Shown: positions 6,944 through 44,560 of the stretch, in pieces
Position numbering within the stretch: the first letter of the stretch is position 1
Layout of the letters: every line of letters starts with the position of its first letter
DNA from: Acidimicrobiales bacterium
GTDB lineage: Bacteria > Actinomycetota > Acidimicrobiia > Acidimicrobiales > Aldehydirespiratoraceae
Reading direction: 5' to 3'
NCBI GenBank assembly: GCA_963667505.2
Contig: OY763490.2
Location: 3,312,343-3,376,342, forward strand
DNA: 64,000 bases
Made by a program: the position numbers and the translations under genes
The notes under the pieces: model-generated
The model's input: the letters and a program-made list of their open reading frames with translations, nothing else
Database searches by the model: none
What the model was told of the DNA's origin: nothing

Positions 6944-6955
6944 GGTGGTGGCGGG

Positions 6956-8203: not shown

Positions 8204-8393
8204 GAACGCCCCCTGGCGGCGGTGAGGCCAAGCTAGCCGTTGCCGGGCGAGGCCTCGAAGCCGGGGAGGCGGCGCCCGCTCTCGGTCGCCTCCGGTGGGA
8301 CACAGGCTCCGAAGCGGTGCTACAGTCCGCGCCTGTATACAAGCCTCGGCGGCCCGACTGCCGGGGCACAGACGGTTCCACACTGGAGGGAAC

Positions 8394-9701
8394 ATGAGAC
8401 GACACTCCTTTCGATGGCTGGTAGCAGCGATCGCGGCCTTCTCGCTGGTCGCGGCGTCCTGCGGCGGCGATGACGACGACTCCACCGTCACCCCTGCGGC
8501 TTCCGAAGAAGAGCCGATGGCCGAGGACGAGCCGATGGCCGAAGAGGAGCCGGCGGCCGAAGAAGAGGCGGCGGCCGAAGAGGCCGAAGAGGAGCCGATG
8601 GCCGAAGAAGAGCCGATGGCCGAGGACGAGCCGATGACCGAGGAAGAGGAAATAACCGAGGCCATCGAGGAGTCCGACATAACCGACATCGCGACCCTCG
8701 ACATGGACACCAACGGCGACGGCAAGGTGATCCTCGGCGTGGCCGCGGCGGGTCCGCGTGACGACGGCGCCTACTACCAGGCCCTGGTGGACGCAGCCGA
8801 GGAGATCTCGGCGGCGCAGGGCTGGGAGCCGCCAGTCGTGGTCGACAACATAGAGCCGGCGGTGGCTGCCACGGAGCTTGAGAACCTCGTTGCTCAGGGT
8901 GTCGACATCATCGCCGTCGGAGCGGGCGAGATCTCTGATCCGCTGCCGGACCTGGTCGAGCAGTATCCCGACGTGTTCTGGTACTGCAATTGCGGCACCG
9001 GCTTCCCCCAGATGGACGGCGTGGCCCTAAGCACAAACGACGGCGCTGAGATCGAGTACGTCGTGGGCGTCGCCGCCGGCCTGATCCTCCAGGAGCGGGG
9101 TGGCGACACTGCGTACATGATCGGCTGCTGCGACCTCGGCTTCGAGGTCGAGACCGAGCTGGCAATGCGCCTGGGCCTCAAGGCGGTGGATCCCAGCTAC
9201 GACGTGGTCTACACGCCGACGGGCAACTTCCCGTTCGACTTCGACAACGTGGCCGGGGCAACCGAGGCGTTCAACGTCGCCCTCGACGCGGGCATGGATT
9301 TCGTCTACCCGTACCTGGGCGGCGCCCACGAGCCTCTGGTTCAGTTGGCCAACGAGAACGGCGTCCCGGTGACGAGCGCGGGCGCATCCGACGTGTGTTC
9401 GCGGACCGACCTGCACTGGGACATGGCCGCGCTGTTCGACGGCGGCGACTTCGCCCGGGCCGTGTTCCCGCTCATCGTGTCGGGGCAGTTCGAGGAGGGC
9501 AGCATCTACAAGTTCGCGGTCGGTCGGGATCCGGAGGTCGGCGCGCTGATCTGCAATCCCACGCCGGAGCAGAAGGAGCTGCTGGACCAGGCCCACGCCG
9601 ACGTCTGGAACGGCTACTGCCTGGCGGAGTTCGACATGATCAGGGCCATCGCCTACGGCGGCGTCGAGATGGAGGCCCCGCTGACCTGCTCGGACGCCTG
9701 A
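8394..9701 (+). CDS. BMP-family (PnrA-like) ABC transporter substrate-binding lipoprotein
   Basis: ATG 8394 is preceded by GGAGGG. Signal peptide plus lipobox LVAASC. Acidic repeat linker followed by a BMP/basic membrane protein-like body. Confidence 0.75.
   Translation: MRRHSFRWLVAAIAAFSLVAASCGGDDDDSTVTPAASEEEPMAEDEPMAEEEPAAEEEAAAEEAEEEPMAEEEPMAEDEPMTEEEEITEAIEESDITDIATLDMDTNGDGKVILGVAAAGPRDDGAYYQALVDAAEEISAAQGWEPPVVVDNIEPAVAATELENLVAQGVDIIAVGAGEISDPLPDLVEQYPDVFWYCNCGTGFPQMDGVALSTNDGAEIEYVVGVAAGLILQERGGDTAYMIGCCDLGFEVETELAMRLGLKAVDPSYDVVYTPTGNFPFDFDNVAGATEAFNVALDAGMDFVYPYLGGAHEPLVQLANENGVPVTSAGASDVCSRTDLHWDMAALFDGGDFARAVFPLIVSGQFEEGSIYKFAVGRDPEVGALICNPTPEQKELLDQAHADVWNGYCLAEFDMIRAIAYGGVEMEAPLTCSDA
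8506..8655 (+). repeat. in-frame tandem acidic repeat (EEPMAE-type) in the lipoprotein linker
   Basis: Repeated gaagagccgatggccgag-type units encode EEEPMAEDEPMAEEEPAAEEEAAAEEAEEEPMAEEEPMAEDEPMTEEEE. Confidence 0.8.
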
Positions 9702-9739
9702 GCGCTCCCTAGGGGCCACCGCACCCGAGAGACCGCCAT

Positions 9740-11356
9740 ATGGCTGATCAGCGGACGGCGGGAACGGAGGTTCCCGCCGTCCGTCTCTCCACGATCTCCA
9801 AGTCGTTCGGGGCCATCGTGGCCTGCGACCGCGTTGACCTGACGCTTCACCGCGGCCGGATCCACGGCATCCTCGGAGAGAACGGCGCGGGCAAGTCCAC
9901 GCTCATGAAGGTGCTTATAGGACTGGTGCTCCCAGACGGCGGCACCATCGAGGTGGACGGCGAGCGCTGCCAGATTCGGGATCCCCACGACGCCGCAGCC
10001 CGCGGGATCGGCATGGTCCACCAGCACTTCAGCCTGGTGGAGCCGCTCACGGTGTGGGAGAACGTGATGCTGGGCGACACCGGCCGGTTCGACGCGGCTG
10101 CCGCCCGCCGGCGAGTCGGCGAGATCAGCGAGCACTACGGCCTGGGAGTCGACCCGGACGCCAAGGTCGAGGAACTCTCGGCCGGGGTCCGCCAGCGCGT
10201 CGAGATCATCAAGTGCCTGCGCCGTGATCCCAGCATCCTGATCTTCGACGAGCCGACCTCCGTGCTGACCCCGGGCGAGTCGGAGCGGCTCTTCGATGTG
10301 CTGCGGCTGGCCGTGCGGGAGGAGAACCGGGCGGTGGCCCTAGTGAGTCACAAGCTCGACGAGATCCTCCACGCCACCGACGAGGTGACCATTATGCGGT
10401 CCGGTGCCGTGGTGAGGCGGATGGAGACCTCGGAGGCGGATGCGCCCATGCTGGCCAGGGCGATGGTCGGTCGGGAGGTCTCGCTCCGGTCGGAAGCGTC
10501 TGCGCTGGGCCTCATCGAGACGGTCGTGGCCGGCGTCGACGACGTCGACGACGCTCGACACCAGACGGCAGGCGACGCCGGGGCCGAATCCGAGGCGCGG
10601 GTGCCCGCGCTCCGCCTCCGAGACGTCGAGGCCCGCGGCCCCGACGGGCGGGTCGCCCTCGACGGTCTGAGCGTCGACGTTTTCGACTCCGAGATCGTGG
10701 GCGTGGCCGGCGTGGAGGGCAACGGCCAGGCCGCACTGACCGACTTGCTGTCGAGCCTGTTGAACGCGGAGGCGGGCACGGTCGAGGTCGACGGCCTCAG
10801 GGTGCAGCCGGGGCGGCCGGGCGCCATGTCCAGAGCGGGCGTGGCCGTCATCCCCGAGGACCGCCACACTTCCGGCTGCGTGCTCGACATGACCGTGGCC
10901 GAGAATCTGTTTTTGGTGGACATCGAGAAGATCGCCACCCGCGGGATCTACGACCCGGCCGTCATGCGACGGGACGCGGCCCGCCTCATCGACGACTTCG
11001 AGATCCAGACGGCTGGTCCGGACGCCCCGTTCTGGTCGCTCTCGGGCGGTAACCAGCAGCGAGTGGTGCTGGCCCGGGAGTTGAGCTACTCGCCCAAGGT
11101 GCTGGTGGCGGCCCAGCCCACCCGGGGGCTTGATGTGGGCGCCATCGAATGGATGACCGACCGTCTCCGCAAGGTGGCCGAGAGCGGCGTCGGGGTGCTG
11201 CTCATCTCGAGCGAACTGGAGGAGATCCTGCAGCTCTCGCACCGCGTCGTCGTGCTGTTCCGCGGTCGCATCATCGGCGAGATGGACAGAGCCGATGTGG
11301 ATCTCGAGGAGCTGGGCCTGCTGTTGGGCGGCGCCAGCGCCGAGGCAGCTGCCTAG
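9740..11356 (+). CDS. ABC transporter ATP-binding protein (duplicated ATPase, sugar/nucleoside type)
   Basis: GENGAGKST Walker A, LSAGVRQRVEI signature, and a second half with LSGGNQQRV. 538 aa. Confidence 0.9.
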   Translation: MADQRTAGTEVPAVRLSTISKSFGAIVACDRVDLTLHRGRIHGILGENGAGKSTLMKVLIGLVLPDGGTIEVDGERCQIRDPHDAAARGIGMVHQHFSLVEPLTVWENVMLGDTGRFDAAAARRRVGEISEHYGLGVDPDAKVEELSAGVRQRVEIIKCLRRDPSILIFDEPTSVLTPGESERLFDVLRLAVREENRAVALVSHKLDEILHATDEVTIMRSGAVVRRMETSEADAPMLARAMVGREVSLRSEASALGLIETVVAGVDDVDDARHQTAGDAGAESEARVPALRLRDVEARGPDGRVALDGLSVDVFDSEIVGVAGVEGNGQAALTDLLSSLLNAEAGTVEVDGLRVQPGRPGAMSRAGVAVIPEDRHTSGCVLDMTVAENLFLVDIEKIATRGIYDPAVMRRDAARLIDDFEIQTAGPDAPFWSLSGGNQQRVVLARELSYSPKVLVAAQPTRGLDVGAIEWMTDRLRKVAESGVGVLLISSELEEILQLSHRVVVLFRGRIIGEMDRADVDLEELGLLLGGASAEAAA

Positions 11357-11377
11357 ACCGGGGGACAGGGGGTCGAC

Positions 11378-12547
11378 ATGAGCGAGCAGCAGACGCCGCC
11401 GCTGGCCGCCGAAGGTCCCGACGTCGGGTCGGACGAGGCTGCCAAGGAGGCGCACGCGCCCTCGCGGCTGCGTGAGGCCGGGGTGGCTGCGGCCATGTAC
11501 CTGGGATGCATCGTCGTGGCCCTGCTCGCATCGGCGATCATCGTGTGGGCGACCGGAGGTTCGTGGCAGGCCGTCTTCTCCGCCCTGCTCGACGGCAGCC
11601 TGCGGGCCCCCGGACGGTGGGGAGAGACCATCGGCATCGCCATCCCGTTGGTGGTGGTGGCCCTGGGAACCGCCATCAACGGCCGGGCCGGAGTTGTCAA
11701 CATCGGCCAGGAGGGCCAGCTGATGATCGGCACGGCCTTCGCCACCTACGTGGGCGTGCGCCTGGGCGGTCCCGGACCGGTGGTAGTGATCTGCCTGCTC
11801 ATCGTGGGGGCCCTCGCGGGAGCAATGTGGGCGGGCATCGCCAGCTGGCTCCTCTATTGGCGGCGGGTGCCGGAGGTGCTCACCACGCTGCTGCTGATAA
11901 CGGTGGCCTCCCAGATCGGCGGCTACGCGTTGAAGGTCGACTGGCTGCTGCTGGCTCCGTTCCGCGAGGACCGCTCGGTTCGCAACCAAGTGAGCGACCA
12001 GCTCGCCAAGGACACCCGGCTGCCCCGCATCGACATCTGGGGCAACGATTTCCCGATCAGCTCCATCGCGGTGGTGCTGATGGCGGTGATCGTGTTCCTG
12101 CTGTTCAAGCGCAGCGTGTGGGGCTTCCGCATGGGCATGCTGGGCCGCAACGCCCGCACGGCGCAGCGGGCCGGCGTTTCGACGGTCAAGTACGGCACCA
12201 CCGCCATGCTCATCTCGGGCGCGTGCGCGGGCCTGGCCGGGGCCCTGATGCTCTCCGGCGGCGACTTCGGGAACTACCGGTTCACGCCCGGCTTCGCCAA
12301 CAACATCGGATGGGAAGGGCTGCTGGTGGCGCTGGTCGCCCGCTCGCACCCCGTCGGCATCGTGGTGGTGGCCTTCAGCTTCGCCGGACTGCGGGCCGGC
12401 TCCGGTTTCCTGGCCGCCACCGGGGTCGAGCGCGAGATCTCCCAAGTGGTCCTCGCCCTACTGGTGCTGGCGCTGCTGGTGCCACCGGCCATCCTGTTCA
12501 TCCGCGAGCGCCGCCGCGCGCTGTCGGCCACCAGAGACAGGACCTGA
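11378..12547 (+). CDS. ABC transporter permease (BPD_transp_2 type)
   Basis: Multi-TM hydrophobic protein directly downstream of the ATPase. ATG 11378. Confidence 0.8.
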   Translation: MSEQQTPPLAAEGPDVGSDEAAKEAHAPSRLREAGVAAAMYLGCIVVALLASAIIVWATGGSWQAVFSALLDGSLRAPGRWGETIGIAIPLVVVALGTAINGRAGVVNIGQEGQLMIGTAFATYVGVRLGGPGPVVVICLLIVGALAGAMWAGIASWLLYWRRVPEVLTTLLLITVASQIGGYALKVDWLLLAPFREDRSVRNQVSDQLAKDTRLPRIDIWGNDFPISSIAVVLMAVIVFLLFKRSVWGFRMGMLGRNARTAQRAGVSTVKYGTTAMLISGACAGLAGALMLSGGDFGNYRFTPGFANNIGWEGLLVALVARSHPVGIVVVAFSFAGLRAGSGFLAATGVEREISQVVLALLVLALLVPPAILFIRERRRALSATRDRT

Positions 12548-12550
12548 CCG

Positions 12551-13486
12551 ATGGGAGGCTTCTTCTCCGCCATAGCCGACGTGGTCGCCAACGACGTGAC
12601 CTATTCGGGCGCCATGCGCTTCGCCGCGCTGCTCGCATTCGCCGCCATCGGCGAGACCATCGCCGAGAAGGCCGGCACCCTCAACATCTCCCTGGAGGGG
12701 ATGATTCTGGGGGGCGCCTTCGCCGGGGCGCTGGGCATGCACCTCACGGAGTCGGTGACGGTCGGGCTGATCTTCGCCACCGTCGTCGGGGTCGTGGTGG
12801 CGTCGGTGCAGGCCAACATGAGCCATCGGCTCACCGCCAACCAGTTCGTGGTCGGGCTGGCTCTCAACACCCTGGTGCTGGGCATCGCCAGCTTCCTGAA
12901 CACCAGCATCCAGCCGGTGTCGAGGGCCGCGCACCGGTTCGAGATCCCCGGCGTGTCGGAGATCCCCCTGGTGGGCGACGCCTTCTTCAATCAGCCTTGG
13001 CCCCTGTACTTGGTGTACCCGATGATCCCGGCCGCGTGGTGGCTGCTGTACCGCACCCGGTGGGGCCTCGAGGTGCGGGCGGTGGGCGAGAACCCGCAGT
13101 CGGCCGACGTGTCGGGCATCGACGTCAACAAGCGCCGACGCCAGTCCATCTACATCGCGGGGTTCACGTCCGGACTGGGCGGCGGCTATCTGGTGCTGGG
13201 CCAGATCGGGCGGTTCGAGGACGCCATCGTCGGCGGCCAGGGGTTCATCGCCATCGCCGCGGTGATCTTCGGCGGATGGACCATGCGGGGCGTCATCGGC
13301 GGGTGTCTCCTGTTCGGCACGGTCAACTCGTTCCGGCTGACTCTGCCAACCGTGGGTCACGAGCTCAATTCCGAGCTCCTGTCGGCCGCGCCGTTCGTGG
13401 TGACCATCGTCACCGTTACCTTCTTCGCCCACCGCACCCGCGAGCCTCGGGCACTGGCCCAGCCCTTCGTACGCGGCCTCACCTAA
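12551..13486 (+). CDS. ABC transporter permease (second membrane subunit)
   Basis: Multi-TM protein of 311 aa, 3 nt after the previous permease. Confidence 0.8.
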   Translation: MGGFFSAIADVVANDVTYSGAMRFAALLAFAAIGETIAEKAGTLNISLEGMILGGAFAGALGMHLTESVTVGLIFATVVGVVVASVQANMSHRLTANQFVVGLALNTLVLGIASFLNTSIQPVSRAAHRFEIPGVSEIPLVGDAFFNQPWPLYLVYPMIPAAWWLLYRTRWGLEVRAVGENPQSADVSGIDVNKRRRQSIYIAGFTSGLGGGYLVLGQIGRFEDAIVGGQGFIAIAAVIFGGWTMRGVIGGCLLFGTVNSFRLTLPTVGHELNSELLSAAPFVVTIVTVTFFAHRTREPRALAQPFVRGLT

Positions 13487-16697: not shown

Positions 16698-17702
16698 TTA
16701 GCTGGTGGCGATGTGGGCTACTTCGGTCAGGAGCTCGCGGTTGGCGGCCGGGCCGGGGGAGATGATGTTGACGAAGAAGGCGTGGAGGTCGTGGGCGCTG
16801 ATGAGGTGCTGGAGTTGGCTGCGGCACTGCTCGGGGGTGCCGGCGATCTGGTACTCCGACACCAGTTCGTCGGTCACGAGGCGGCCGACGGCCTCGGGGC
16901 CGCCCTGCTCGAAAGCGTGCTTGAGGCCGGCGATCTCCGTTTCGCTCAGGCCGAGGTTCTTGAGGATCCGGGGCGGGCTGTCCATGATGGCGTAGCCGTA
17001 GAGGTGCTTGGCCTCCTCGATCATCTCGGGCTTGTAGGCCAGCCGGTCGAGGTAGACCCGGGTGAGCGGAGCACTCGCTCCGGCGGTTCCGGCTCTCGCT
17101 CCGGCCGCGGCCTTGCGGGCCTCGTTGGCGATCTCGAAGGCGTCGGCTAGGTCGGACTTGACCATCAGCACCAGACCGTCGGCGCGGGCGCCGGCCAGAG
17201 CGAGCATCCTTTCGCCCCGGGCCGCGACCCAGACCGGGATCGAGTGCGTGCCGGTGGTTAGCTGGGCGCTGTCGAGTGTGAGTCGCCGACCCTGCCAGGT
17301 CACCGGCTCGCCCTGCCACAGCAGCCTGAGGGTCTCGATGGTGTCGGCCATCATCGCCAGCGGAGCGGCCCGCTCCAGGCCGATCGGGTGCAGCACCATG
17401 GTGCCGCCTGCAACCAGCGTGACGAAGGCCCGGCCTCCGCTCATCTCGTCGATGGTGGCGATCGCGGCCGCGGTGGCCGCCGGGTGACGGGTGTAGGGGT
17501 TGGTGACCGGGCCCAGCCGGATCGTGCTGGTGGTCTCGGCTGCGGCGCCCAGCACCGCGTACACGTCGAGCATCAGGCCCTCGTCGGCCACCATGCAGTA
17601 CGAGTATCCGAGCTCCTCGGCCAGCACGATGATGTCGATCAGCTCGGCCGAGCCCATAGTCGGCACGATCTGCAACCCCAGCGCGATGCCGTCGGCGCTC
17701 AT
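16698..17702 (-). CDS. LLM-class (luciferase-like) oxidoreductase resembling F420-dependent methylene-H4MPT reductase (Mer)
   Basis: The block LGPVTNPYTRHPAATAAAIATIDEMSGGRA closely follows the Mer/LLM-F420 pattern. 334 aa. Confidence 0.75.
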   Translation of the reverse strand: MSADGIALGLQIVPTMGSAELIDIIVLAEELGYSYCMVADEGLMLDVYAVLGAAAETTSTIRLGPVTNPYTRHPAATAAAIATIDEMSGGRAFVTLVAGGTMVLHPIGLERAAPLAMMADTIETLRLLWQGEPVTWQGRRLTLDSAQLTTGTHSIPVWVAARGERMLALAGARADGLVLMVKSDLADAFEIANEARKAAAGARAGTAGASAPLTRVYLDRLAYKPEMIEEAKHLYGYAIMDSPPRILKNLGLSETEIAGLKHAFEQGGPEAVGRLVTDELVSEYQIAGTPEQCRSQLQHLISAHDLHAFFVNIISPGPAANRELLTEVAHIATS

Positions 17703-17775: not shown

Positions 17776-18495
17776 TCATGGCTGCTCCTGCCAGGGGTCG
17801 TGGGGCGGTCGGATCACGACCGGGCCGATGTCGATGCGGCGGTCGGATCCGAGCAGGTCGGCCACCAGCTCGCCCACCCCGGCTGCGGGCATCATGCGGG
17901 CCCGCACCGACTCGGGAGCCTTGCCGTCCCACAGCTCGGTGTCGATCTGGGCGGGACACAGCGTGATCACCCTGATGCCGCAGTCTCGTCCCTCCAGCCG
18001 CAGCACCTCGCCCAGCGCGTTGAGGCCGCCCTTGGAGGCGGCGTAGGCGGCGTTCCCCTCGAACGCCTGCACCGCGGCGATGCTGCTGATCAGGACGATC
18101 TGACCCCCGGCCGCGGCCAGTGCCTCCCAAGCGGCCCGAGTCAGGGCCATGACCGCGCCCAGGTTGACGTCGAGGACGCGCTGCCAATGACCGGGGGTCG
18201 CCTCCGGCACGGCCGCCTTGTCGAACACGCCCGCGCTGTGGACGATCACATCAATGCGGCCCTGGGCTGCCAGCGTCTCGGTGATCGCCCGCTCAGGCTC
18301 GCCGGGTTCGGTCAGGTCGGCCGCCAAAGTCGTGGCCGTCGGGCCCAGTTCCTCGGCCACGGCCCGCAGCCGGTCCTCGCGTCGCCCCACCAGCACGCTG
18401 CGGACGCCCCGAGCCGACAGCGCAGCCGCGCAAGCCAAGCCGATGCCCGAGCCGCCGCCCGTCACGACCGCGACCGGAGCAGGCCGAGACGTCAT
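17776..18495 (-). CDS. short-chain dehydrogenase/reductase
   Basis: VVTGGGSGIG Rossmann motif and YAASKGG catalytic motif. Start at ATG 18495 (alternative 18516). Confidence 0.85.
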   Translation of the reverse strand: MTSRPAPVAVVTGGGSGIGLACAAALSARGVRSVLVGRREDRLRAVAEELGPTATTLAADLTEPGEPERAITETLAAQGRIDVIVHSAGVFDKAAVPEATPGHWQRVLDVNLGAVMALTRAAWEALAAAGGQIVLISSIAAVQAFEGNAAYAASKGGLNALGEVLRLEGRDCGIRVITLCPAQIDTELWDGKAPESVRARMMPAAGVGELVADLLGSDRRIDIGPVVIRPPHDPWQEQP

Positions 18496-19092
18496 CTGGG
18501 GATCACTCTGCGGCATCGTCCGGGACGCCGATCCCCAGGAAGCCCTCGATGCGGGCCAGCCGCTGCCCGTTCTCCGACACCTCGACCCGCAAGTCGCCGA
18601 TCTCGGTGCCCAGCTTGGTCTCAAGCTGGCTGATCTCGGCTCTCAGTTCGGTGCGCAGGCTGTCCGTGGTCTGCTGCTGATTCCAGATGATGGCCATCAC
18701 TCCCAGGACGACGGCGAGCAGTTGTGCGACAGGGATGAGCTGCGGCCAGCGCGGCGCCACGGTGCCTGCATCCGCCATGGCGGCTGCTTGGCGCACGACT
18801 GCGGGGTCGGCGACGGTCATCTGGGGATCACTCTGCGGCATCGTCCGGGGCGCCGATCCCGAGGAAGCCCTCGATGCGGGCCAGCCGCTGCCCGTTGTCC
18901 GATACCTCGTTGCGCAGTTCGCTGATCTCGGCTCTCAGTTCGGTGCGGAGGTTGTCGGTGGTCTGTTGCTGATTCCAGACGATGGCGAACACTCCGAGCA
19001 CGACGGCGAGCAGTTGTGCAACAGGGATGAGCTGCGGCCAGCGCGGCGCCGCGGCTGCTTCGGGCACCGCTGCGGGGTCGGCGGTGGTCGCC
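18491..19092 (-). repeat. tandem ~325-bp duplication carrying the small coiled-coil gene
   Basis: GTCATCTGGGGATCACTCTGCGGCATCGTCCGGG recurs at 18491 and 18816. The units are alignable throughout with one 33-bp indel. Confidence 0.85.
18503..18841 (-). CDS. small membrane-anchored coiled-coil protein, paralogue 2
   Basis: Has WPQLIPVAQLLAVVLGVMAIIWNQQQTTD and ENGQRLARIEGFLGIG. Alternative start at 18820. Confidence 0.55.
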   Translation of the reverse strand: MPQSDPQMTVADPAVVRQAAAMADAGTVAPRWPQLIPVAQLLAVVLGVMAIIWNQQQTTDSLRTELRAEISQLETKLGTEIGDLRVEVSENGQRLARIEGFLGIGVPDDAAE

Positions 19093-19133
19093 GAGCCTTC
19101 GCCCGGAACGTTGAACGCCTCTGACGCGGCCAT
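18828..19133 (-). CDS. small membrane-anchored coiled-coil protein, paralogue 3
   Basis: Start taken at ATG 19133 (MAASEAF). Near-identical TM and C-terminal motif to paralogue 2. Confidence 0.55.
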   Translation of the reverse strand: MAASEAFNVPGEGSATTADPAAVPEAAAAPRWPQLIPVAQLLAVVLGVFAIVWNQQQTTDNLRTELRAEISELRNEVSDNGQRLARIEGFLGIGAPDDAAE

Positions 19134-19212
19134 GCCGAAACCATAGCCTCTCAGGTGTTCAATGCAACACAATATCTTTAGATACATCTCCGAACATGGA
19201 AATCGAAGGTAC

Positions 19213-20178
19213 TCACGGCTGGCCGAAGAAGGAGGCGGCTAGCACGTCGTAGTTGATGCGGCCGGCGCTGTAGGTGCGTCCGCTGGCCAGGTTGGTGAGA
19301 TGGATCTCGGCCGGGGAGTGCAGCTCGATGGGGATCTCGTAGAAGTCCCGACCGGCGTCCTCGTAGATCTCGATGAACGGGCGCCCGTAGGCAGTGCTGG
19401 CCGCGGACACCACCCGGTCGACGATCTCGGCGCACTGGGCGTCGTCGGCCTCGACGGTCACGTTGGCGATCCCGCCGTAGAGCAGGCTGTCGTTGATGCG
19501 GCCCATCGAGACCAGGTCGTCGTCCACCAGCGGCGGCACCACCCCCAGCCCGTAGGCGTAGCGCAGGCCCCGCAGGTCCATGCCCTCCTCGGCCAGGCGG
19601 TGGATGGACTGCTCCACGATGCGGGCCGCCACCTGCACCGCGGTGACCAGGCTGCGGTTGGGGGCGAACAGCACGTACAGGTCGGCAGGGCCGACCCGGC
19701 AGGCCGAGGCGATCATGTCGGCCATCTCCACCGGCACCGGATCGGACGTCTGAATGGCCACCACCGACTCGTGGTGGTCGTCGCGGTAGTCGGTCCACTC
19801 GAAGTAGTGGTCGAGGCTGTCGCGGTTCAAGGCCCGACCCGGCCCGGCCAGGATGGCGGCGTGCTCGGTGCCGGGAGCCTGCAGGCGCCATCCGGCGATC
19901 TGCGAGGCCACGCAGGCCTCGATGGGATGGTCGATCATCACCCGCACCGCGGTGAGCATCCGCCCGGCCAGCTCGAACGGCTCGTAGCTCACGATCCCGA
20001 GCCCGCCCAGGCTGGCCAGCGTGTAGAGCTGAGCGGCCCGCCAGCCGCCCTTGGCCTCCAGGCCCATGTCGATGACGGTGGTGCCGTTGTCGAGCCGGTC
20101 CACGGCCACGCCCAGCGCGTCGGCCTCGTCCAGGATGAGCCGCACCGTCCTCATCGCCTCACGGTTGACGCTGATCAT
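19213..20178 (-). CDS. mch: methenyltetrahydromethanopterin cyclohydrolase homologue
   Basis: 321 aa. N-terminal SVNREA...LDNGTTVIDMG, then MGRINDSLLYGG, YGRPFIEIYE..DFYEIP, and the tail LASGRTYSAGRINYDVLAASF match the Mch pattern as I recall it. Confidence 0.7.
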   Translation of the reverse strand: MISVNREAMRTVRLILDEADALGVAVDRLDNGTTVIDMGLEAKGGWRAAQLYTLASLGGLGIVSYEPFELAGRMLTAVRVMIDHPIEACVASQIAGWRLQAPGTEHAAILAGPGRALNRDSLDHYFEWTDYRDDHHESVVAIQTSDPVPVEMADMIASACRVGPADLYVLFAPNRSLVTAVQVAARIVEQSIHRLAEEGMDLRGLRYAYGLGVVPPLVDDDLVSMGRINDSLLYGGIANVTVEADDAQCAEIVDRVVSAASTAYGRPFIEIYEDAGRDFYEIPIELHSPAEIHLTNLASGRTYSAGRINYDVLAASFFGQP

Positions 20179-20211: not shown

Positions 20212-20988
20212 TCAGGCGGGGGTGGACTCGCGGGCGCCGAGGGCCGCGTCCACCGGGATGATCGCGCCGTTGAGGTAGCTGGCCTCGGGCGAGGCCGCGA
20301 ACAGGATGGCCGCGGTGATCTCCTCGGGACGGCCGAAGCGGCCCTCGGGGATGTGGCGCTGCACCGCGGCCTGCACGTCGGGGTCGCGCATCCCGGCCAG
20401 CAGCGCCTCGGTGGCGATCAGCCCGGGGGCCACCGCGTTGACCCGCACGCCCTTGGGGCCGAGCTCCAGGGCCATCGCCCGGGTCAGGCCCTCGACTGCG
20501 CCCTTGGAGGCGATGTAGGCGCAGCGGTTGGCCACGCCTAGCCGGGCCAGGATCGAGCTGAGGTGGACGATGGCGCCCTGGCCCCGCTCGGCCATCCCGG
20601 CGGCCACCAACTGGCTCAGCTGGAACAGCCCTCTCACGTTGGCCAGCCATACGGTGTCGAAGGCCTCCAGAGAGAGGTCGAACATCGACGAGCGGTCGAT
20701 CAGCGCCGCGTTGTTGACCAGGATCGACACCGGCCCCAGCGCGGCCTCGACCTCCCTTGCGAGTCGGTCGACGTCGTCCTCGCGGCCGATGTCGGCTTGG
20801 AAGACCTCGGCCTCGCCTCCCGCATCGATGATGGCCTGCCGAGTGGAGATAGCGCCGTCGGCGTCGTTGCGGTAGTTGACCGCGACCAGCGCCCCCTCGG
20901 CTGCGAAGGCCTTGGCGGTGGCCGCGCCGATACCGCGCGAGGAGCCGGTGACCAGCACGGTGCCGCCGTCGAAGCGGTCAGGCCTCAT
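20212..20988 (-). CDS. short-chain dehydrogenase/reductase (FabG-like)
   Basis: VLVTGSSRGIG, NNAA, and YIASKGAVEGLTR motifs. Confidence 0.85.
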   Translation of the reverse strand: MRPDRFDGGTVLVTGSSRGIGAATAKAFAAEGALVAVNYRNDADGAISTRQAIIDAGGEAEVFQADIGREDDVDRLAREVEAALGPVSILVNNAALIDRSSMFDLSLEAFDTVWLANVRGLFQLSQLVAAGMAERGQGAIVHLSSILARLGVANRCAYIASKGAVEGLTRAMALELGPKGVRVNAVAPGLIATEALLAGMRDPDVQAAVQRHIPEGRFGRPEEITAAILFAASPEASYLNGAIIPVDAALGARESTPA

Positions 20989-21075
20989 GTTCGGCCTCCT
21001 CGCGCGGGGATGTGGTGACGTGCTCGCGGGCGTTGTCGCCGGACTCGAGGTGGGGCCTCATGTCCGGCCTCCTCG
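20981..21075. repeat. 22-bp duplication of the SDR ribosome-binding/start region (GGCCTCATGTYCGGCCTCCTCG) 73 bp apart
   Basis: Copy 1 at 20981-21002 contains the SDR ATG. Copy 2 at 21054-21075 contains the lipoyl-gene stop. Confidence 0.8.
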
Positions 21076-21333
21076 GATGGCGGCGGCCTCGGCCTCGTCG
21101 TCGGCGATCACGGCCAGCACCGTGCCCACGTCCACGGTCTCGTCCTCCTCCACCAAGATCCGGGCCACCACCCCGGCGCAGGGTGCCTCCAGTTCGTTCT
21201 CGACCTTCTCGGTCTCGACCTCGGCGATCATCTCGCCCTCCACCACATGGTCGCCCTCGTCCACGTACCAGGCCACCACGGTGCCGTCCTCCATGGTCAG
21301 CCCCCACTTGGGCAGGATCACGTCTGTGCTCAT
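21058..21333 (-). CDS. stand-alone lipoyl-attachment domain protein (E2 lipoyl domain only)
   Basis: 91 aa. ILPKWGLTMEDGTV..., and AEVETEKVENELEAP with the candidate lipoyl-Lys43. No peripheral-subunit-binding domain and no catalytic acyltransferase domain. Confidence 0.75.
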   Translation of the reverse strand: MSTDVILPKWGLTMEDGTVVAWYVDEGDHVVEGEMIAEVETEKVENELEAPCAGVVARILVEEDETVDVGTVLAVIADDEAEAAAIRGGRT

Positions 21334-21372: not shown

Positions 21373-22502
21373 TCAGTACTCGGCGGCCTTGGCGATGGCC
21401 GCGGCTATGTCGTCGGTGTCGGGGAGGACTACTTCCTCTAAGGGCACCGAGAACGGAATGGGGGTGTCCAGGCCGTCCACCCGCACCACCGGGCCCCGCA
21501 GGTCGGCGAAGCACTCCTCGCTGATGCGGGCGCTGAGCTCGGCGCCGAGCCCGCCGATGCGGGGCGCCTCGTTGGCCACCACCGTCCGGCCGGTCTTGAC
21601 GGCCGAGGCCAGAACCGTCTCAGCGTCGTAGGGCCTGATGGTACGCAGGTCCACCACCTCGACGGACACGCCGTCGGCTGCGGCCCGCTCGGCCGCCTCC
21701 AGCGCCATCGGCACCATGCGCATGGCCGCCACCACCGTCACGTCGGTGCCCTCCCGGGCCACCGCGGCCTGCCCCAGCGGGACGGTGTAGTAGTCGGGGG
21801 GCACTTCGGCCCGGCTGCGGTACAGGGCCTTGTGTTCCAGGAAGAGCACCGGGTCGTCGCTGTCGATCGACGCCAACAGCAGGCCCTTGGCGTCCACCGG
21901 GTTGGACGGCGCCACGATCACGATGCCAGGCACGTTGAGGAACCAGCCCTCCACGCTTTGGGAGTGGTGCGGGCCGCCGCCGAACCCGCCCCCGCAGGCG
22001 GTGCGGATCACCAGCGGCGCGGTGAACTGGCCGTCGAACATGTAGTGGAGCTTGGCCACGTTGTTGACCACCTGGTCGTAGCACTCGGCGATGAAGTCGG
22101 CGAACATGATCTCGGCCACCGGGCGCATGCCGACCATGGCCGCGCCGGCGCAGGTGCCGATGATGGCCGCCTCCGACAGCGGCGTGTCGCGCACTCGCTC
22201 CGGCCCGTACTTGGCCAGCAGCCCCTTGGTGACGCCGAAGTCGCCGCCCATCTCGGCGATGTCCTCGCCGATGAGGAACATCTCGGCGTGCTTGTCCATG
22301 GCCAGGTCCAGGGCGTTGTTGAGGGCCTGGGTGAAGCTGGCCTTGCGCACCCGGTCGCGGCCCTTGCGCGGCTTGCGCCGGGCCCGGCGCTCCCGCGGCG
22401 CGCCCTCAGCGCCGGCAGGCGGGGCCTCGGCGGTTGCGGCCTGCGCGTCGGCGGAAGGGGTCTCGGCTGCTTCGGCGGTTGCGGTCGTGGTCTCGGCGGC
22501 GG

Positions 22503-22506
<4 letters not shown>
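21373..22506 (-). CDS. 2-oxo acid / acetoin dehydrogenase E1 component beta subunit, with an N-terminal Ala/Thr/Glu-then-Arg/Lys extension
   Basis: Start at ATG 22506 (ATGA overlap with the E1 alpha stop). The core from FTQALNNALD..FLIGEDI onward matches the transketolase-like pyrimidine-binding and C-terminal domains. Confidence 0.8.
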
Positions 22507-23480
<974 letters not shown>

Positions 23481-23614: not shown

Positions 23615-24301
23615 CTAGCCGCCGTCAACCGCGGCGTCGGACGAGTCGGAGTACTCGTCCCACGGGATGCGGGGCAGGAAATAGGCGCCCTCGTCCACGG
23701 TGCGCAGGAAGGTCCGCAAGCCGAGCCGGGCGATGGCGCCGAGGCGCAGCGGGTCGATGCGGCCCCGCTCGTCGCATATCGACGAGTCGTAGGCCACCCA
23801 CACCACCTCGCCGATCACCAGGTGGACCTCGCCGAAGACCCGGCCCGGCGTTCCGAGGTCCACCACCTGGTGGACCACACACTCCAGGCGGGCCAGCGCC
23901 TCGCCGACGGCGGGGGAGCTGACCTTGGTAGCCGGCACCGGCGTCCATCCGGCCAGCTCGAACTCGTCGACCTCGCTGGGGGCCTCCATGGCCACCGTCT
24001 CGATGTCGTCGCGGAACGCCTCGCCGGTGACGTTGATCACGAAGTCGCCCGACGCCATGGCGTTGAGGTAGGTGTGCTTCAGGCTGCCGTCCTCCAGCAG
24101 CCCCATGGTGACCCCCACCAGCATCGGGTCGCCCGTGATGGGCAGGTAATAGCTCATCGGGGCGACGTTGTTCACGCCGTCGGGGCTGCGGGTGGACACC
24201 ATGGCGATGGGACGGGGCACGACCAGCTGCGAGAGCATGAACTGGCGGTCCATGGGCGGGTTCACAGCCGGGTCGAAAGTGACGGTGCGCTCGGGATCCA
24301 T
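23615..24301 (-). CDS. flavin reductase-like (FMN-binding split-barrel) protein
   Basis: PRPIAMVSTRSPDGVNNVAPMSYY pattern. Start at ATG 24301 (track alternative 24358). Confidence 0.75.
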   Translation of the reverse strand: MDPERTVTFDPAVNPPMDRQFMLSQLVVPRPIAMVSTRSPDGVNNVAPMSYYLPITGDPMLVGVTMGLLEDGSLKHTYLNAMASGDFVINVTGEAFRDDIETVAMEAPSEVDEFELAGWTPVPATKVSSPAVGEALARLECVVHQVVDLGTPGRVFGEVHLVIGEVVWVAYDSSICDERGRIDPLRLGAIARLGLRTFLRTVDEGAYFLPRIPWDEYSDSSDAAVDGG

Positions 24302-24395
24302 CGGTTCGGCGTCCTTCTCGGCCCTCTCTCCAGGCCGTCTCGGCGTCCGGTGTCTCAAGTGCCGTGCGGTTTGCGGGGTGCTGCCGCGGTCGGCT

Positions 24396-25565
24396 TCAGG
24401 CCCCGTTCGTAGGCCAATGACGGCGGTAGCGCCTCACCAGCCAGCGGTTGAACTGCACCAGGGTCTCCTCCTGCCACGAGTAGCGGCCCCGGGGGGCCAA
24501 GTGCGAGTTGAGGCCCTTCTGGGTCATGGTGTCGGCGTAGATGTCCTGCACGTTGAAGTTGTTGACCCCGGCCTCGGCTGCCTCGAACAGGTACTCGAAG
24601 AGCGGGTCCTCCAGCGCGGCGGGCTCCAGGCAGTAGCCGATGTGGATGGTGATGTGGCCGGTGTCCTGGGGGCTGATTATGAAGTAGGCCACCTCGTCGG
24701 GGACGATGGCCAATGCCAGCGTGGGCGGGATCAGCACGAAGCCGCCCCGCTTGCGCTGCTCGTCGGTGAGGTTGGAGAACACCGGCAGGATGCAGCGCTG
24801 GGTGGGGTTGAACGAGCTGTCGATGTCGGTGAAGTGCTGGATCCGGCCGATGGCGCCGTCGGTGTCGTCCCAGTCGAGGAAGTCGTTCATGTGGCTCGGT
24901 GCGAACGTCTGCAATGGTCCGTGCAGCCTGCTGGCGTGGTACGGGTCGTTGAAGTTCTCCATCATGACCTTCCAGTTCCACGGAAGATCCGGGATCGTCT
25001 TGCCTTCCAGGGTGGTGGTGGACTCCAGCCCGTAGTTGGCGAGCATGTCGTCGATCTTGGTCATGGTGGGGCCGAACGGGGGAGCGTCATGGTCGAAGTT
25101 GGCCATGATGAACCCGTGCCAGATCTCCACCTTGAGTTGGGGCAGCGGATGCTCGGACCGGTCGAAGCCGACGGCCCGGTCCATGGCCGGCGTGCCCAGC
25201 AGGGTGCCGTCGAGGCCGTAGCTCCAGTGGTGGTAGGGGCAGGTGAACCGACGGCAGTTGCCCGAACCCTCGGCGATCACCATGCCCCGATGGCGGCACA
25301 CCGCCGACATAACCCGCAGCTCGCCGTCAGAGTCCCGGGCCGCGATCAGGGGCTCGCCCGCGATGGCGATGCAGCGGAAGTCGCCCGGCTCGGGCAGTTG
25401 GTCGGTCCGGCCCACGCAGAGCCACTCCCGCTGGAAGATGGCCCGCCGCTCGAACTCGTAGAACTCCGGCGACGTGTAGAGCTCGGGCGGTAGCAGCCTG
25501 GCCTCGTCCACCGGCCCGATCGATTCCTCGAAGCTGGCCAGGAGTTCGTCGGTCAGCACCGTCAT
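24396..25565 (-). CDS. Rieske (2Fe-2S) non-heme iron oxygenase alpha subunit
   Basis: CRHRGMVIAEGSGNCRRFTCPYHHW Rieske motif. Start at ATG 25565 (track alternative 25604). Confidence 0.85.
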   Translation of the reverse strand: MTVLTDELLASFEESIGPVDEARLLPPELYTSPEFYEFERRAIFQREWLCVGRTDQLPEPGDFRCIAIAGEPLIAARDSDGELRVMSAVCRHRGMVIAEGSGNCRRFTCPYHHWSYGLDGTLLGTPAMDRAVGFDRSEHPLPQLKVEIWHGFIMANFDHDAPPFGPTMTKIDDMLANYGLESTTTLEGKTIPDLPWNWKVMMENFNDPYHASRLHGPLQTFAPSHMNDFLDWDDTDGAIGRIQHFTDIDSSFNPTQRCILPVFSNLTDEQRKRGGFVLIPPTLALAIVPDEVAYFIISPQDTGHITIHIGYCLEPAALEDPLFEYLFEAAEAGVNNFNVQDIYADTMTQKGLNSHLAPRGRYSWQEETLVQFNRWLVRRYRRHWPTNGA

Positions 25566-25604
25566 TGCTGGTGTTCTCCCTAGGTCTGCTCGCGTGCGGG
25601 CCAA

Positions 25605-26077: not shown

Positions 26078-26116
26078 GGGTGTTCTCCTCTCGTTTGCGG
26101 ATCGTGCGTGCTCTGC

Positions 26117-26433: not shown

Positions 26434-28164
26434 CTAGATGGTCGTCAGGGCTTGCTGAAGGGCGGTGCCGATCTTTAGGCATAGGGCGTCGGCGTGGGGT
26501 GGGGCGACGATCTGGATGGCGGCCGGGCGGGTCTCGTCGAGTGCGGTCGGCATCACGAGGGCGGGCTGGCCGGTGACGTTGAAGGGCAGGAGGGTGCGGG
26601 CCACCTTGTCGAGCCAGAGACGGTCGCCGTCGTCGAAGAAGGTGGCCGGGTCGGGTGCCGAGGTCGGCGTGGCTGCGGTGACGATCACGTCGGCCTGCTC
26701 GAAGGCCGCGTCGAGGTCCTGCTGGACGAGGCGGCGGACCCGCAAAGCCTTCAGGTAGTCCGCGGCGCCGGTGCGGGCGCCCGCGGCCAGCCGGCACGCC
26801 GCCGACGGCGTGAACTCGCCGATGCGGCCCAGGTTGCTCGCATGGTGGGCGGCGAACTCCACGACGGTGATCACCCAGGCGACGATGCCGGCCAGCTCCG
26901 CATGGGGGATCGACACCGTGATGACCTCGGCGCCTAGGCGCTCCAGCTCGCCGACGGCCGCCTCGACGGCTGCGGTCATGGCAGGACTGCACCCGTCAGC
27001 CAGCCAGCCGTCCACCACGCCCACTCGCAGTCCGTGCAGGCGGACCAGGCCATCGGGCGCCGGGGCGCGAGACTGCTTGGCACGGGCCGATCCCGCTCTG
27101 CTGGCCGCAGTCCCGGCGGCGCGGTAGTCGGGGACCGGTCGACTCGACGAATAGGGATCGGCGTCCGAGCGGCCCGCGATCACGCCCAGCACCAGGGCCA
27201 GGTCCTCGACGGTGCGAGCCATGGGCCCCACATGGTCGAGCGTCCAGGACACGCCGAAGACGCCGTCGCGGGGCACCCGGCCGAACGTTGGCTTGATCCC
27301 GCTCACGCCGCAGTACGACGACGGCACCCGGATCGACCCGCCGGTGTCGGTTCCCAGCGCCACCGGGAACAGCCCGGCGGCCAGGCCCGCAGCCGACCCC
27401 GACGAGCTTCCGCCCGCCCACCGGCCCGGCGCGGCCGGATTGACCACGCCGTCGCCGGTCTCGTCGCCGAAGGCGAACTCCGGGGTGGTGGTCTTGGCCA
27501 GGATCACCGCGCCCGCCTCCCGCAGCCGGGCCACCACGGCGGCGTCGGCGGACGGGACCCGGCCCGCGTGCAGCGGCGATCCGGCCTCGGTGGCCAGCCC
27601 CGCCGTGTCGATGATGTCCTTGATGCCGACGGGCACGCCCTCCAGCGGCCCCGCGTCACCGGCGCTCCACCGCCGGGCCGACCGGGCCGCCTGTTCTCGG
27701 GCCGTGCCATCGAGGCTCACAATCGCGCCGATCTCGCCGTCGAGTTCGTCGATCCGAGCCAGGCATGCATCCACCGCTTCGACCGGATCGAACCTCCCGG
27801 CCCGGTACCCGTCCAGCAGGGCCGCGGCGCTGAGAGCGGTGAGGTCGTCGTCGGCCCGCGCCGTCCTGCTCCCTGGCGAGAGATGGGACTCCTCGCTGGC
27901 CCCGACTGCGACCTCTGGTGCTCTACCGTCCGCGATCCAGCGGTAGCCAGCGGCCGGTCCGACGGTCTCGGGGAACGGCTCGTCCAGCGAGCGCAGCGCG
28001 GCCAGCTTGTTGCCTAGCGTGGCCTGCGCGGCCGCCGCGGCGGCCAGAATCCCTTCAGGGATCGCGACCGCTCCGTCGGTCACTGTCCAGTCGCTGGCCA
28101 CGGCCGAAACGTAACCGAGCCGCACTCGATGCGCCGCAAGGCGGCACTCCGCCGAGCGCGCCAC
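26434..28164 (-). CDS. amidase (amidase-signature family) with a possible ~100-aa N-terminal extension
   Basis: GGSSSGSAAGLAAG signature and GIKPTFGRV. The start is uncertain. The canonical amidase core begins near LTALSAAALLDGYRAG. Confidence 0.8.
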   Translation of the reverse strand: MARSAECRLAAHRVRLGYVSAVASDWTVTDGAVAIPEGILAAAAAAQATLGNKLAALRSLDEPFPETVGPAAGYRWIADGRAPEVAVGASEESHLSPGSRTARADDDLTALSAAALLDGYRAGRFDPVEAVDACLARIDELDGEIGAIVSLDGTAREQAARSARRWSAGDAGPLEGVPVGIKDIIDTAGLATEAGSPLHAGRVPSADAAVVARLREAGAVILAKTTTPEFAFGDETGDGVVNPAAPGRWAGGSSSGSAAGLAAGLFPVALGTDTGGSIRVPSSYCGVSGIKPTFGRVPRDGVFGVSWTLDHVGPMARTVEDLALVLGVIAGRSDADPYSSSRPVPDYRAAGTAASRAGSARAKQSRAPAPDGLVRLHGLRVGVVDGWLADGCSPAMTAAVEAAVGELERLGAEVITVSIPHAELAGIVAWVITVVEFAAHHASNLGRIGEFTPSAACRLAAGARTGAADYLKALRVRRLVQQDLDAAFEQADVIVTAATPTSAPDPATFFDDGDRLWLDKVARTLLPFNVTGQPALVMPTALDETRPAAIQIVAPPHADALCLKIGTALQQALTTI

Positions 28165-28184
28165 GTTGAGGACTGCCTTGTGAG

Positions 28185-28577
28185 TCAGTCCGGTAGTTCG
28201 ACTTCGCAGCGGATGCCGTCTGCCCGTGCCAGTCGCTGGTCATAGGTCAGCAGCGTGGCGCCTATCGTCTCAGCGAGGGCTACATAGGCCGCGTCGTACA
28301 CGGTGAGGTTGTCGCGCAGCTCCCAGCAGCGTGCCAGCAGCGGTTCATGAGGAACGCGAGTGACGGGCAGCACAGCCAGGTGCCGCAACCCGCTGCGAGC
28401 GAGCGGCTCCGCCAGTTCCCCCCGCCGAACGAGCCCCCTCAGTGCCGAAGTCACTTCGAGGTCGAGCACATGCGGCGCCAGCGCGGCCTCCTTCGTGATG
28501 CGGCGCAGCACCTTGAGGTTCCGCTCGCTCGATCCAGCCACCGCCTCCGTGGCCACGCTGGCGTCGACGACAATCAA
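28185..28577 (-). CDS. vapC: PIN-domain toxin VapC
   Basis: MIVVDASV N-terminus, 130 aa, with a 4-nt overlap with the upstream antitoxin gene. Confidence 0.8.
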   Translation of the reverse strand: MIVVDASVATEAVAGSSERNLKVLRRITKEAALAPHVLDLEVTSALRGLVRRGELAEPLARSGLRHLAVLPVTRVPHEPLLARCWELRDNLTVYDAAYVALAETIGATLLTYDQRLARADGIRCEVELPD

Positions 28578-29602: not shown

Positions 29603-29685
29603 GGCGGCGGGCCTCTATGGGGCTCCCGGGACTAGGCGACCCGGGGCGTTGCGACGGGATCCGCCCGATTGTCTCAGCCGGGCGG

Positions 29686-32012: not shown

Positions 32013-41774
<9,762 letters not shown>

Positions 41775-41841
41775 CGGTGAACCCCCCGCCTCGCGCGCAG
41801 ATGGTAGTGGCCGAGGGTCGAGCCGAATCAGGCGTCCCGGG

Positions 41842-43590: not shown

Positions 43591-43609
43591 AGCGGCACGG
43601 TCTCCGTGC

Positions 43610-44542: not shown

Positions 44543-44560
44543 GGCTCCCGAGAGGGCCGG

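Follow-up and report, generated by a model that had tools for sequence, protein, structure and literature searches.

In the window, the whole stretch of 64,000 nucleotides analysed from contig OY763490.2 of an Acidimicrobiales bacterium, a minus-strand gene encodes a homologue of methenyltetrahydromethanopterin cyclohydrolase (Mch). Profile and residue comparisons assign the protein to a distinct, uncharacterised branch of the Mch family, here named 'type B'. The genes of this branch are in the constant company of a thiamine pyrophosphate (TPP)- and lipoate-dependent dehydrogenase and a short-chain dehydrogenase/reductase (SDR), in operons for N-heterocycle breakdown, which suggests that the branch probably does not serve methanopterin one-carbon (C1) metabolism. 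A sequence-only reading had placed the protein, together with a Mer-like oxidoreductase of the luciferase-like monooxygenase (LLM) family and nearby Rieske oxygenases, in a tetrahydromethanopterin (H4MPT) module for formaldehyde. The families that it named were right, namely Mch, a Mer-like LLM and alpha-only Rieske proteins (which proved to be of the CntA/GbcA type), but the pathway was probably wrong. Type B is a new and consistently mis-annotated Mch variant.

The Mch-like protein and its branch of the family

19213..20178, minus strand: type B Mch-like cyclohydrolase, 321 aa, ATG start, from profile and structure matches

The open reading frame (ORF) has a GC3 of 0.95, in a region of 69% GC. 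When the protein was searched against Pfam, the entire MCH profile was covered (PF02289, 339.3 bits, E 2.8e-101, cut-off 25), residues 3-317 aligning with profile positions 1-311 of 311. The NCBIfam model TIGR03120 (one_C_mch) scored 278.3 bits against a cut-off of 228.8, and the translation contains SVNREA..LDNGTTVIDMG, GRINDSLLYGG, YGRPFIEIYE..DFYEIP and the tail GRTYSAGRINYDVLAASF. The Mch pattern that had been recognised along all 321 residues was thus borne out. The best structure match was M. kandleri Mch (1qlm, 244 bits, 42% identity), other top matches being 4fio and A. fulgidus Mch 4gvq; the alignments run end to end and the identities to the solved archaeal enzymes range from 35 to 42%. 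The canonical enzymes (1qlm, 4gvq/4gvr/4gvs, 4fio) belong to the same full-length fold family as type B and have the catalytic Arg/Glu in common with it.

In the window protein this pair is R186 and E189, the counterparts of R183 and E186 of A. fulgidus Mch; the catalytic role of the latter was reportedly described by Upadhyay and co-workers in 2012. Both residues are invariant across 118 members of the window clade. Type B Mch is predicted to be catalytically competent, and since most family-wide invariants are kept along with this pair, the chemistry is probably hydrolysis at the carbon of a cyclic amidinium.

Strong Mch matches above curated cut-offs, with Mer as the family nearest to the LLM, favour a canonical methenyl-H4MPT cyclohydrolase that acts with Mer in H4MPT-dependent formaldehyde oxidation or assimilation, the remaining genes lying elsewhere in the genome. 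This explanation is nevertheless considered extremely improbable, and a first argument against it is that the type B signature is unlike that of every characterised Mch.

A protein search yielded 416 homologues, the best 120 of which share 63-93% identity with the window protein. Among the matches listed, those with names come from Acidimicrobiia and Caldilineaceae, and every one had been automatically named Mch. Assessed against 1.84 billion representative proteins, the window clade is discrete: one representative was found at 60% identity and the next full-length relatives at 42% or less, whereas identities inside the clade are 60% or more. Residues were then compared between 118 window-clade members and 112 other full-length Mch representatives. 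E143, T190, T228, D283 and F287 mark 89 of these representatives together with the three solved archaeal enzymes 1qlm, 4gvq and 4fio (canonical Mch, type A), E143 being conserved in 91% and F287 in 92% of the 89. Glutamine occupies position 143 in 20/21 type B representatives and in 118/118 window-clade members; Q190, I/V228 and H/D287 are common in type B, along with M38, W46 and R132.

The signature of the window protein itself is M38, W46, I94, R132, Q143, Q190, I228, P283 and H287. Relative to canonical Mch, type B shows the substitutions E143Q, F287H, D283P, S111A, T190Q (beside the catalytic Glu) and T228I, and has an insertion of two residues. Seven canonical residues (E143, F287, D283, S111, G179, P148 and P213 in window numbering) are 90-98% conserved in the 89 type A representatives, and the window protein departs from all of them, with Q143, H287, P283, A111, T179, V148 and V213. 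At position 179 it has Thr, where most clade members have Cys. Most of the residues that are invariant throughout the family are retained in the window clade. Position 94 had been considered as a diagnostic ('QKA' in archaea, 'QIA' here, segment 93-95) and was dropped, as canonical Mch varies there between Y, L, M, K and A. Membership of the Mch family thus stood, whereas the protein falls into a separate subfamily with its own signature and not among the canonical enzymes. Its nearest type B clades, 38-44% identical to it, come from Halanaerobiales (locus L086), a second group of Acidimicrobiia (L088) and Spirochaetales (L093). A literature search covering Acidimicrobiia, sponge symbionts, Chloroflexi and purine catabolism returned nothing specific on homologues of Mch.

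Domain fusions also separate the two types. Type A Mch domains occur in fusions with either an FhcC-like GXGXG domain or an ATP-grasp domain, never with E1/E2 parts. We take the GXGXG and ATP-grasp domains to be H4MPT/methanofuran partners, and the restriction of such fusions to type A counts against a canonical role for the window protein. One type B protein (P0179, L092 6478-7848) is a fusion of a lipoyl domain, an E3-binding domain and Mch (Lip-E3BD-Mch) that stands in for E2. It was examined as Rosetta-stone proof of physical coupling and set aside: it is a singleton, and both the catalytic Glu and the GSGPAR loop are missing from it. Little weight is given to it because it is most simply explained as an E2-core deletion between adjacent genes arranged as in L093, and it is treated as a mere trace of E2-Mch adjacency.

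The conserved module and its Mer-like LLM

The closest metagenome-assembled genomes (MAGs) are sponge-metagenome Acidimicrobiia labelled 'Candidatus Aldehydirespirator'. A scan of species-representative genomes gave 80 loci, at 68-95% identity in Acidimicrobiales/Ilumatobacteraceae and at 62-66% in Chloroflexota. Neighbours were counted by tblastn and neighbour clustering in 85 loci, 10 kb on each side, many of the loci being incomplete:

SDR: 81/85 loci, the most constant neighbour
E1beta: 70/85 loci
LLM: 69/85 loci
E1alpha: 67/85 loci
lipoyl carrier: 67/85 loci
separate E2 catalytic-domain gene: 34/85 loci, in every lineage but the window's own

The order E1alpha-E1beta-lipoyl carrier-(E2 core)-SDR-Mch-LLM is fixed over the 85 loci, and the synteny is kept across four phyla. 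In the window, the genes form an operon with short gaps, all on the minus strand, that reads Rieske-flavin reductase-E1alpha-E1beta-lipoyl-SDR-Mch-two small membrane proteins-second SDR-LLM:

24396..25604, minus strand: alpha-only Rieske oxygenase of the CntA/GbcA/Stc2 type, lineage-specific accessory
23615..24358, minus strand: flavin-reductase-like protein at the operon head, lineage-specific accessory
22503..23480, minus strand: E1 alpha, 325 aa (E1_dh), closest solved structures E1 alpha of pyruvate dehydrogenase (PDH)
21373..22593, minus strand: E1 beta, TPP enzyme of the PDH/acetoin-dehydrogenase type, NF006667 322.3 bits, cut-off 321
21058..21333, minus strand: free-standing lipoyl-domain carrier, 91 aa, lipoylation motif ETEK, from profile matches
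20212..20988, minus strand: classical SDR, 258 aa, directly upstream of Mch, from profile matches
18503..18841 and 18828..19187, minus strand: tandem pair of small single-pass membrane/coiled-coil paralogues, lying between Mch and the second SDR
17776..18624, minus strand: second SDR, from profile matches
16698..17702, minus strand: Mer-like LLM oxidoreductase, 334 aa, from profile and structure matches

Two further genes lie outside the operon:

26434..28239, minus strand: AtzE-family-like amidase, on the same strand and upstream
8226..13486, plus strand: Bmp/PnrA-type ABC transporter, divergent from the operon

The two E1 subunits and the lipoyl domain belong to the type found in the acetoin and pyruvate dehydrogenase complexes (AcoABC, PDH). 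In contrast to those complexes, the lipoyl domain is here a separate protein; it carries neither an E3-binding nor an E2 catalytic domain, and its best match is the N-terminus of acetoin dehydrogenase E2. The 64-kb window yielded no E2 catalytic domain, E3-binding domain, E3 or lipoate ligase, whereas full sets occur in L086, L088 and L093. The structures nearest to the SDR and to E1alpha were generic and gave no clue to a substrate. In L002 and L005 the SDR gene overlaps the start of Mch by 4 nt.

The remaining neighbours vary with the lineage. In the sponge group (n=30) a Rieske gene is found in 23/30 loci, an AtzE-like amidase in 21/30 and a Bmp/PnrA ABC transporter in 18/30; this transporter type also accompanies type B Mch in Chloroflexota, L087 and L091, the Mch gene directly adjoining the Bmp transporter in the last two. 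Among the distant clades, L086 reads SDR-MCH-E1a-E1b-E2-LplA-E3-MCH-SDR-amidohydrolase, so that two SDR-Mch pairs flank one E1-E2-LplA-E3 set, L088 reads MCH-E1a-E1b-E2-OTCase-M20 (OTCase, ornithine carbamoyltransferase) and L093 reads amidohydrolase-E3-SDR-E1a-E1b-E2-MCH, followed by a xanthine dehydrogenase (XDH)-family gene. On the L089 contig, three Mch paralogues were observed beside an E1beta gene. Parts of corrinoid methyltransferases (B12-binding, URO-D family, Pterin_bind) flank the type B module in L086 (3085-9231) and L093 (660-1823). The occurrence of corrinoid parts in the anaerobes and of Rieske enzymes in the symbionts at the same position may mean that methylated substrates are demethylated first.

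Profile comparison agreed with the description of the nearby Rieske enzymes as alpha-only and demethylase-like. Oxygenases of such formaldehyde-releasing types would fit a canonical H4MPT role, and they had been offered as the rationale for a C1-carrier module. This rationale did not hold, as the conserved partners of Mch are E1alpha/beta, the lipoyl carrier, SDR and LLM, and Rieske genes beside Mch are limited to the sponge-symbiont group, none being found in other Acidimicrobiia or in Chloroflexota loci. The operon's Rieske oxygenase was also considered as a purine N-demethylase, and this was rejected, as its nearest relatives are carnitine monooxygenase CntA and GbcA.

Pfam scans of the likely genes of the window turned up no fae, mtd, fhc/ftr or H4MPT-biosynthesis family, in line with the absence that had been reported from the sequence. 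Nor was any such gene present among the recurrent neighbour clusters of the 85 loci (10 kb on each side; singletons unscanned). Both results stand against a canonical H4MPT role, and type B differs here from canonical Mch, its partners being E1/E2/lipoyl proteins and SDR in place of Fae, Mtd, Fhc/Ftr and H4MPT biosynthesis. The same E1/E2 partners accompany type B in Halanaerobiales and Spirochaetales, groups that are not known to make H4MPT or F420, which also counts against that role.

The LLM gene had been described as Mer-like and 1.5 kb from Mch. Mer is indeed its nearest family and the protein block quoted for it was found, but it scored below both Mer cut-offs (NF002619, 181.5 bits against 276; TIGR03555, 169.6 against 348.7). 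Any other F420 LLM family scored about 80 bits. All top structures were Mer (140-100 bits), the next family reaching 45 bits, so that Mer (TIGR03555; 8qpl, 1z69, 1f07) is the nearest relative by a wide margin in both family and structure. In M. jannaschii Mer, four positions surround the pterin; Glu6 is the catalytic residue common to all three methylene-tetrahydropterin reductase families, its E6Q mutant keeps 0.4% of kcat, and Asp96 contacts the pyrimidine ring (Gehl et al. 2024, PMC11094777). The window LLM has Q11, G100, M182 and Y237 at the positions of Glu6, Asp96, residue 178 and Phe233, and the same Gln/Gly/Met/Tyr set occurs in 44/52 LLM orthologues. The Mer catalytic residues are thus gone. 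Judged by these features, the LLM appears to be derived from Mer without being a Mer; it is probably still F420-binding or F420-dependent. The proposal of an H4MPT C1-carrier module is left unsupported on three further counts, as no pathway gene recurs nearby, the LLM carries Glu6 to Gln and Asp96 to Gly, and Mch belongs to a separate subfamily.

Possible functions of the module

The link to heterocycle catabolism is clearest in Chloroflexota, where (n=11) an XDH is found in 7/11 loci, a YgeY-like M20 hydrolase in 8/11, cog0402 amidohydrolases in 7/11 and a regulator with helix-turn-helix and cupin domains (HTH-cupin) in 8/11. The typical order begins with a cog0402 amidohydrolase and the HTH-cupin regulator on the opposite strand, followed by XDH-E1a-E1b-Lip-E2c-SDR-MCH-LLM. 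The XDH consists of a FAD subunit and an Fe-S/Mo subunit, its best match being the XdhD family, below the curated cut-off. After the LLM, and varying by genome, come a HyuA-type dihydropyrimidinase (514 bits, cut-off 393), an SsnA-like amidohydrolase, YgeY (372 bits, cut-off 321), an OTCase-like protein and a PnrA-type transporter; the SsnA-like protein, with SsnA as best match, and the OTCase-like protein score below their cut-offs. YgeX (diaminopropionate ammonia-lyase) was found in L005 only, in Acidimicrobiia (317 bits, cut-off 276).

XdhD, YgfK, SsnA, HyuA, YgeW, YgeY and YgeX make up the reductive pathway for uric acid and 2,8-dioxopurine (PMC12507026; bioRxiv 10.1101/2025.04.24.650524). 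Neither source mentions a Mch homologue, an SDR or an E1/E2 system. A luciferase-family F420 LLM of Chloroflexota clusters has been flagged as a putative 2,8-dioxopurine (yanthine) reductase (Li et al. 2025). According to the same authors, the reduction was detectable only when coupled to the amidine hydrolase SsnA, and the reductive uric-acid pathway ends in pyruvate. In summary, the Chloroflexota loci are probably an F420 variant of that pathway.

The best explanation, which is put forward tentatively, is that type B Mch opens the cyclic amidine of a reduced purine- or pteridine-type catabolite in a catabolic module and takes no part in H4MPT C1 metabolism. The module would comprise the TPP-dependent E1alpha/beta, the lipoyl carrier, an E2 core in most other lineages, the SDR, the Mch-like enzyme and, in F420-producing phyla, the Mer-derived LLM. 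We infer the class of substrate, the order of the steps and each of the activities as follows. An imported N-heterocycle of the purine or pteridine type would have a C=N bond reduced by the SDR and/or the F420H2-dependent LLM. The Mch-like enzyme would then use a water molecule activated by Arg/Glu to hydrolyse the cyclic amidine or amidinium, yielding a formamide or an amide in the way that Mch acts on methenyl-H4MPT+, and this hydrolysis would pull the unfavourable reduction forward, like SsnA for YgfK in E. coli. Amidohydrolases or amidases would remove the ureido and formyl groups. The 2-oxo acid left over, pyruvate or a close relative, would be oxidatively decarboxylated by the dedicated E1/lipoyl system.

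The pairing of LLM and Mch matches the reductase/amidine-hydrolase logic of YgfK and SsnA in the reductive uric-acid pathway, and pyruvate as its end product would fit the E1/E2 system of the type B module. In the window, the XDH-family enzyme, the Bmp/PnrA transporter, the AtzE-like amidase, three NCS2 permeases and a cog0402 amidohydrolase are counted in favour of such a role. The window locus differs from the uric-acid pathway in having no YgeY, YgeX, HyuA or YgeW, and a Rieske enzyme and an AtzE-like amidase instead. It is not filed as a member of the uric-acid clusters because those markers are absent, only the XDH-family enzyme and the cog0402 amidohydrolase being present. Ectoine, thiamine, dimethyl-ribityl-lumazine, imidazolium betaines, 7-methylguanine and creatinine were considered as substrates, and none was supported beyond chemical plausibility.

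Several points weigh against heterocycle opening. YgeY, YgeX, HyuA and OTCase were found neither in the 64-kb window nor within 10 kb of the module in the window's lineage, so that the purine link rests mainly on the Chloroflexota relatives. There, the SsnA-like and XdhD-like proteins fall below curated cut-offs, and for this reason a match to the clusters of Li et al. cannot be shown. Several Chloroflexota loci hold both an SsnA-like gene and Mch, so Mch is not simply a substitute for SsnA. The retained family invariants and the passing of the TIGR03120 equivalog cut-off would fit a substrate close to methenyl-tetrahydropterin, and two distant members have pterin-related genes near type B Mch, Pterin_bind in L086 and FolB in L087. 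Finally, there is no obvious need for a dedicated E1/lipoyl system just to oxidise pyruvate, and the loss of the E2 core in the window lineage is not accounted for.

Some of these points favour a pterin C1 enzyme acting on tetrahydrofolate (H4F) or another tetrahydropterin, in which SDR and Mch, paired in the manner of FolD, would be the methylene dehydrogenase and the methenyl cyclohydrolase. C1 units would come from demethylases or from heterocycle breakdown, and E1/E2 would catalyse a separate step of the same route. Haloarchaea use H4F, and it has been proposed that this is the carrier on which their homologues of Mch and Mer act, which share 45% and 38% identity with the methanogen enzymes (PMC8305020). 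Besides TIGR03120 and the retained catalytic Arg/Glu and invariants, the close pairing of SDR and Mch resembles that of MtdA and Mch and also FolD; in L086, Pterin_bind, a corrinoid protein and URO-D methyltransferases lie directly upstream of SDR-MCH, FolB genes lie near the L087 Mch, and Rieske oxygenases of the demethylase type belong to the window operon. This role is considered unlikely. The glutamate on which all three known methylene-tetrahydropterin reductase families depend is missing from the LLM; the recurrent neighbours of the module include no formiminotransferase, formyltransferase, Fhs, MetF or SHMT; and E143 and F287 are replaced throughout type B although H4F and H4MPT share the pterin head. 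The universal E1/lipoyl linkage is left unaccounted for, and the Rieske association is confined to one genus-level group. The haloarchaeal proteins HVO_2573 and HVO_1937 are likewise a Mch and Mer-like pair outside methanogens and methylotrophs that automatic annotation routinely mis-names. Compared by description, they differ from the present pair: a C1-carrier role is kept in the proposal made for them, whereas here the LLM has lost Glu and Asp and Mch is tied to E1/lipoyl.

The E1/lipoyl linkage is central to a scheme of lipoyl-coupled C1 loading, a 'glyoxylate cleavage system' analogous to the glycine cleavage system. The free lipoyl carrier would be loaded by E1 through decarboxylation of glyoxylate or another small 2-oxo acid; the Mch-like protein would move the formyl group from lipoyl to a vicinal-diamine acceptor, for example a tetrahydropterin, and cyclise it to methenyl, which SDR and LLM would reduce further. 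Only in this scheme do all six conserved genes find a place along a single linear route, whose sequence of steps roughly follows the order of the genes. The free carrier of 88-91 aa is like H-protein, and it is kept in the window lineage where the E2 core is lost. Malate synthase G occurs in 4 loci, glyoxylate/hydroxypyruvate reductase-like and hydroxypyruvate-isomerase-like genes recur, and one Lip-E3BD-Mch fusion exists. The scheme is nonetheless thought very improbable. Transfer of a formyl group from lipoate to a pterin has no known precedent. The fusion, a singleton without the catalytic Glu, looks like a deletion between adjacent E2 and Mch genes, the LLM is without the reductase glutamate, and Mch was not originally the unloading enzyme, since the distant type B clades have a complete E2.

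Opening of a cyclic amidine of a reduced heterocycle thus remains the preferred function. A wider claim, that type B is an unrecognised class coupling a TPP/lipoyl decarboxylase to formate-level C-N chemistry, is regarded as decidedly unlikely. Such a class would be either a glyoxylate cleavage system that loads a tetrahydropterin or the ring-opening enzyme of an as yet undescribed F420-linked route for methylated purines or pteridines, a route common to Acidimicrobiia, Chloroflexota, Halanaerobiales and Spirochaetales.

Other genes of the window and meaning for the family

Two start sites in the operon probably lie inside the ORFs given above. For E1beta the true start is probably near 22506. 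In this frame, a stretch of about 50-80 residues, rich in Ala/Thr/Glu and then in Arg/Lys and possibly a linker or docking segment, precedes the transketolase-like domain and overlaps the end of the E1alpha gene. For the second SDR the start is probably near 18495, since the Pfam match begins at residue 51. A further paralogue of the small membrane proteins was located:

16339-16620, minus strand: third small membrane/coiled-coil paralogue

The three small paralogues measure 93-119 aa and have one hydrophobic helix, a coiled-coil-like repeat and an invariant C-terminal motif NGQRLARIEGFLGIG; they are borne on direct DNA repeats of 82-139 nt. Genes like them, with a product of 139 aa in L001, come after Mch in some 15-21 related loci. 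An ORF of 132 codons (25718-26116, minus strand), located between the Rieske gene and that for the AtzE-like amidase, has a weak match to retropepsin-like aspartyl proteases (PF13650/PF13975, about 30 bits).

In the XDH-family molybdoenzyme (3054-6955, minus strand) the Mo subunit (1212 aa) carries the FAD domain as a C-terminal fusion, and the 2Fe-2S subunit is separate; the best models for this enzyme were 4-hydroxybenzoyl-CoA reductase and XdhA, all below cut-off. Another Rieske ORF, of 604 codons from stop to stop, follows the XDH genes (6956-8770); its Rieske domain is preceded by some 230 residues. The three NCS2 xanthine/uracil permease paralogues (about 590-630 aa, 41842-48209, minus strand) represent an unusual redundancy for nucleobase uptake, and an alpha/beta hydrolase (43610-44560) lies between the first two. 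A type I polyketide synthase (PKS) of 3322 aa (32013-41981, minus strand) has the layout KS-AT-DH-cMT-ER-KR-ACP with a second KS, and a phosphopantetheinyl transferase lies at 28892-29614. The PKS is conserved upstream of the module in many close MAGs; its layout presumably resembles that of the 'Sup' methyl-branched fatty-acid synthases of sponge symbionts. A DhnA/LsrF-type class I aldolase (window 49541-50365) is 82% identical to a copy in L030. Genes for a class I aldolase, an FGGY kinase and a hydroxypyruvate-isomerase-like TIM-barrel protein (clusters c32/c33/c75) recur in L050, L055, L057, L059, L081, L084 and L085, which hints at a sugar-like or polyol fragment in the pathway.

Contigs from one sponge metatranscriptome, belonging to related strains at 90-99% identity, span the module from about 16.6 to 25.4 kb. 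The module is therefore probably expressed in situ, DNA carry-over being possible with these related-strain contigs.

At present, public pipelines name every type B member 'methenyltetrahydromethanopterin cyclohydrolase'. As a result, metagenome studies can credit sponge symbionts, Chloroflexota and Spirochaetes with H4MPT C1 metabolism on the basis of a gene that probably does something else. Q143, Q190, I228 and H/D287, combined with the E1/lipoyl synteny, provide a simple rule that separates type B from canonical Mch. The link of type B to an E1/lipoyl system and to F420-dependent heterocycle degradation was unexpected, and it is testable. If the proposed function is true, Mch and Mer, hallmarks of methanogenesis, would have been recruited as a pair into N-heterocycle catabolism, and this pair would account for the additional, unexplained genes in the F420 variant of the newly described reductive pathway for uric acid.

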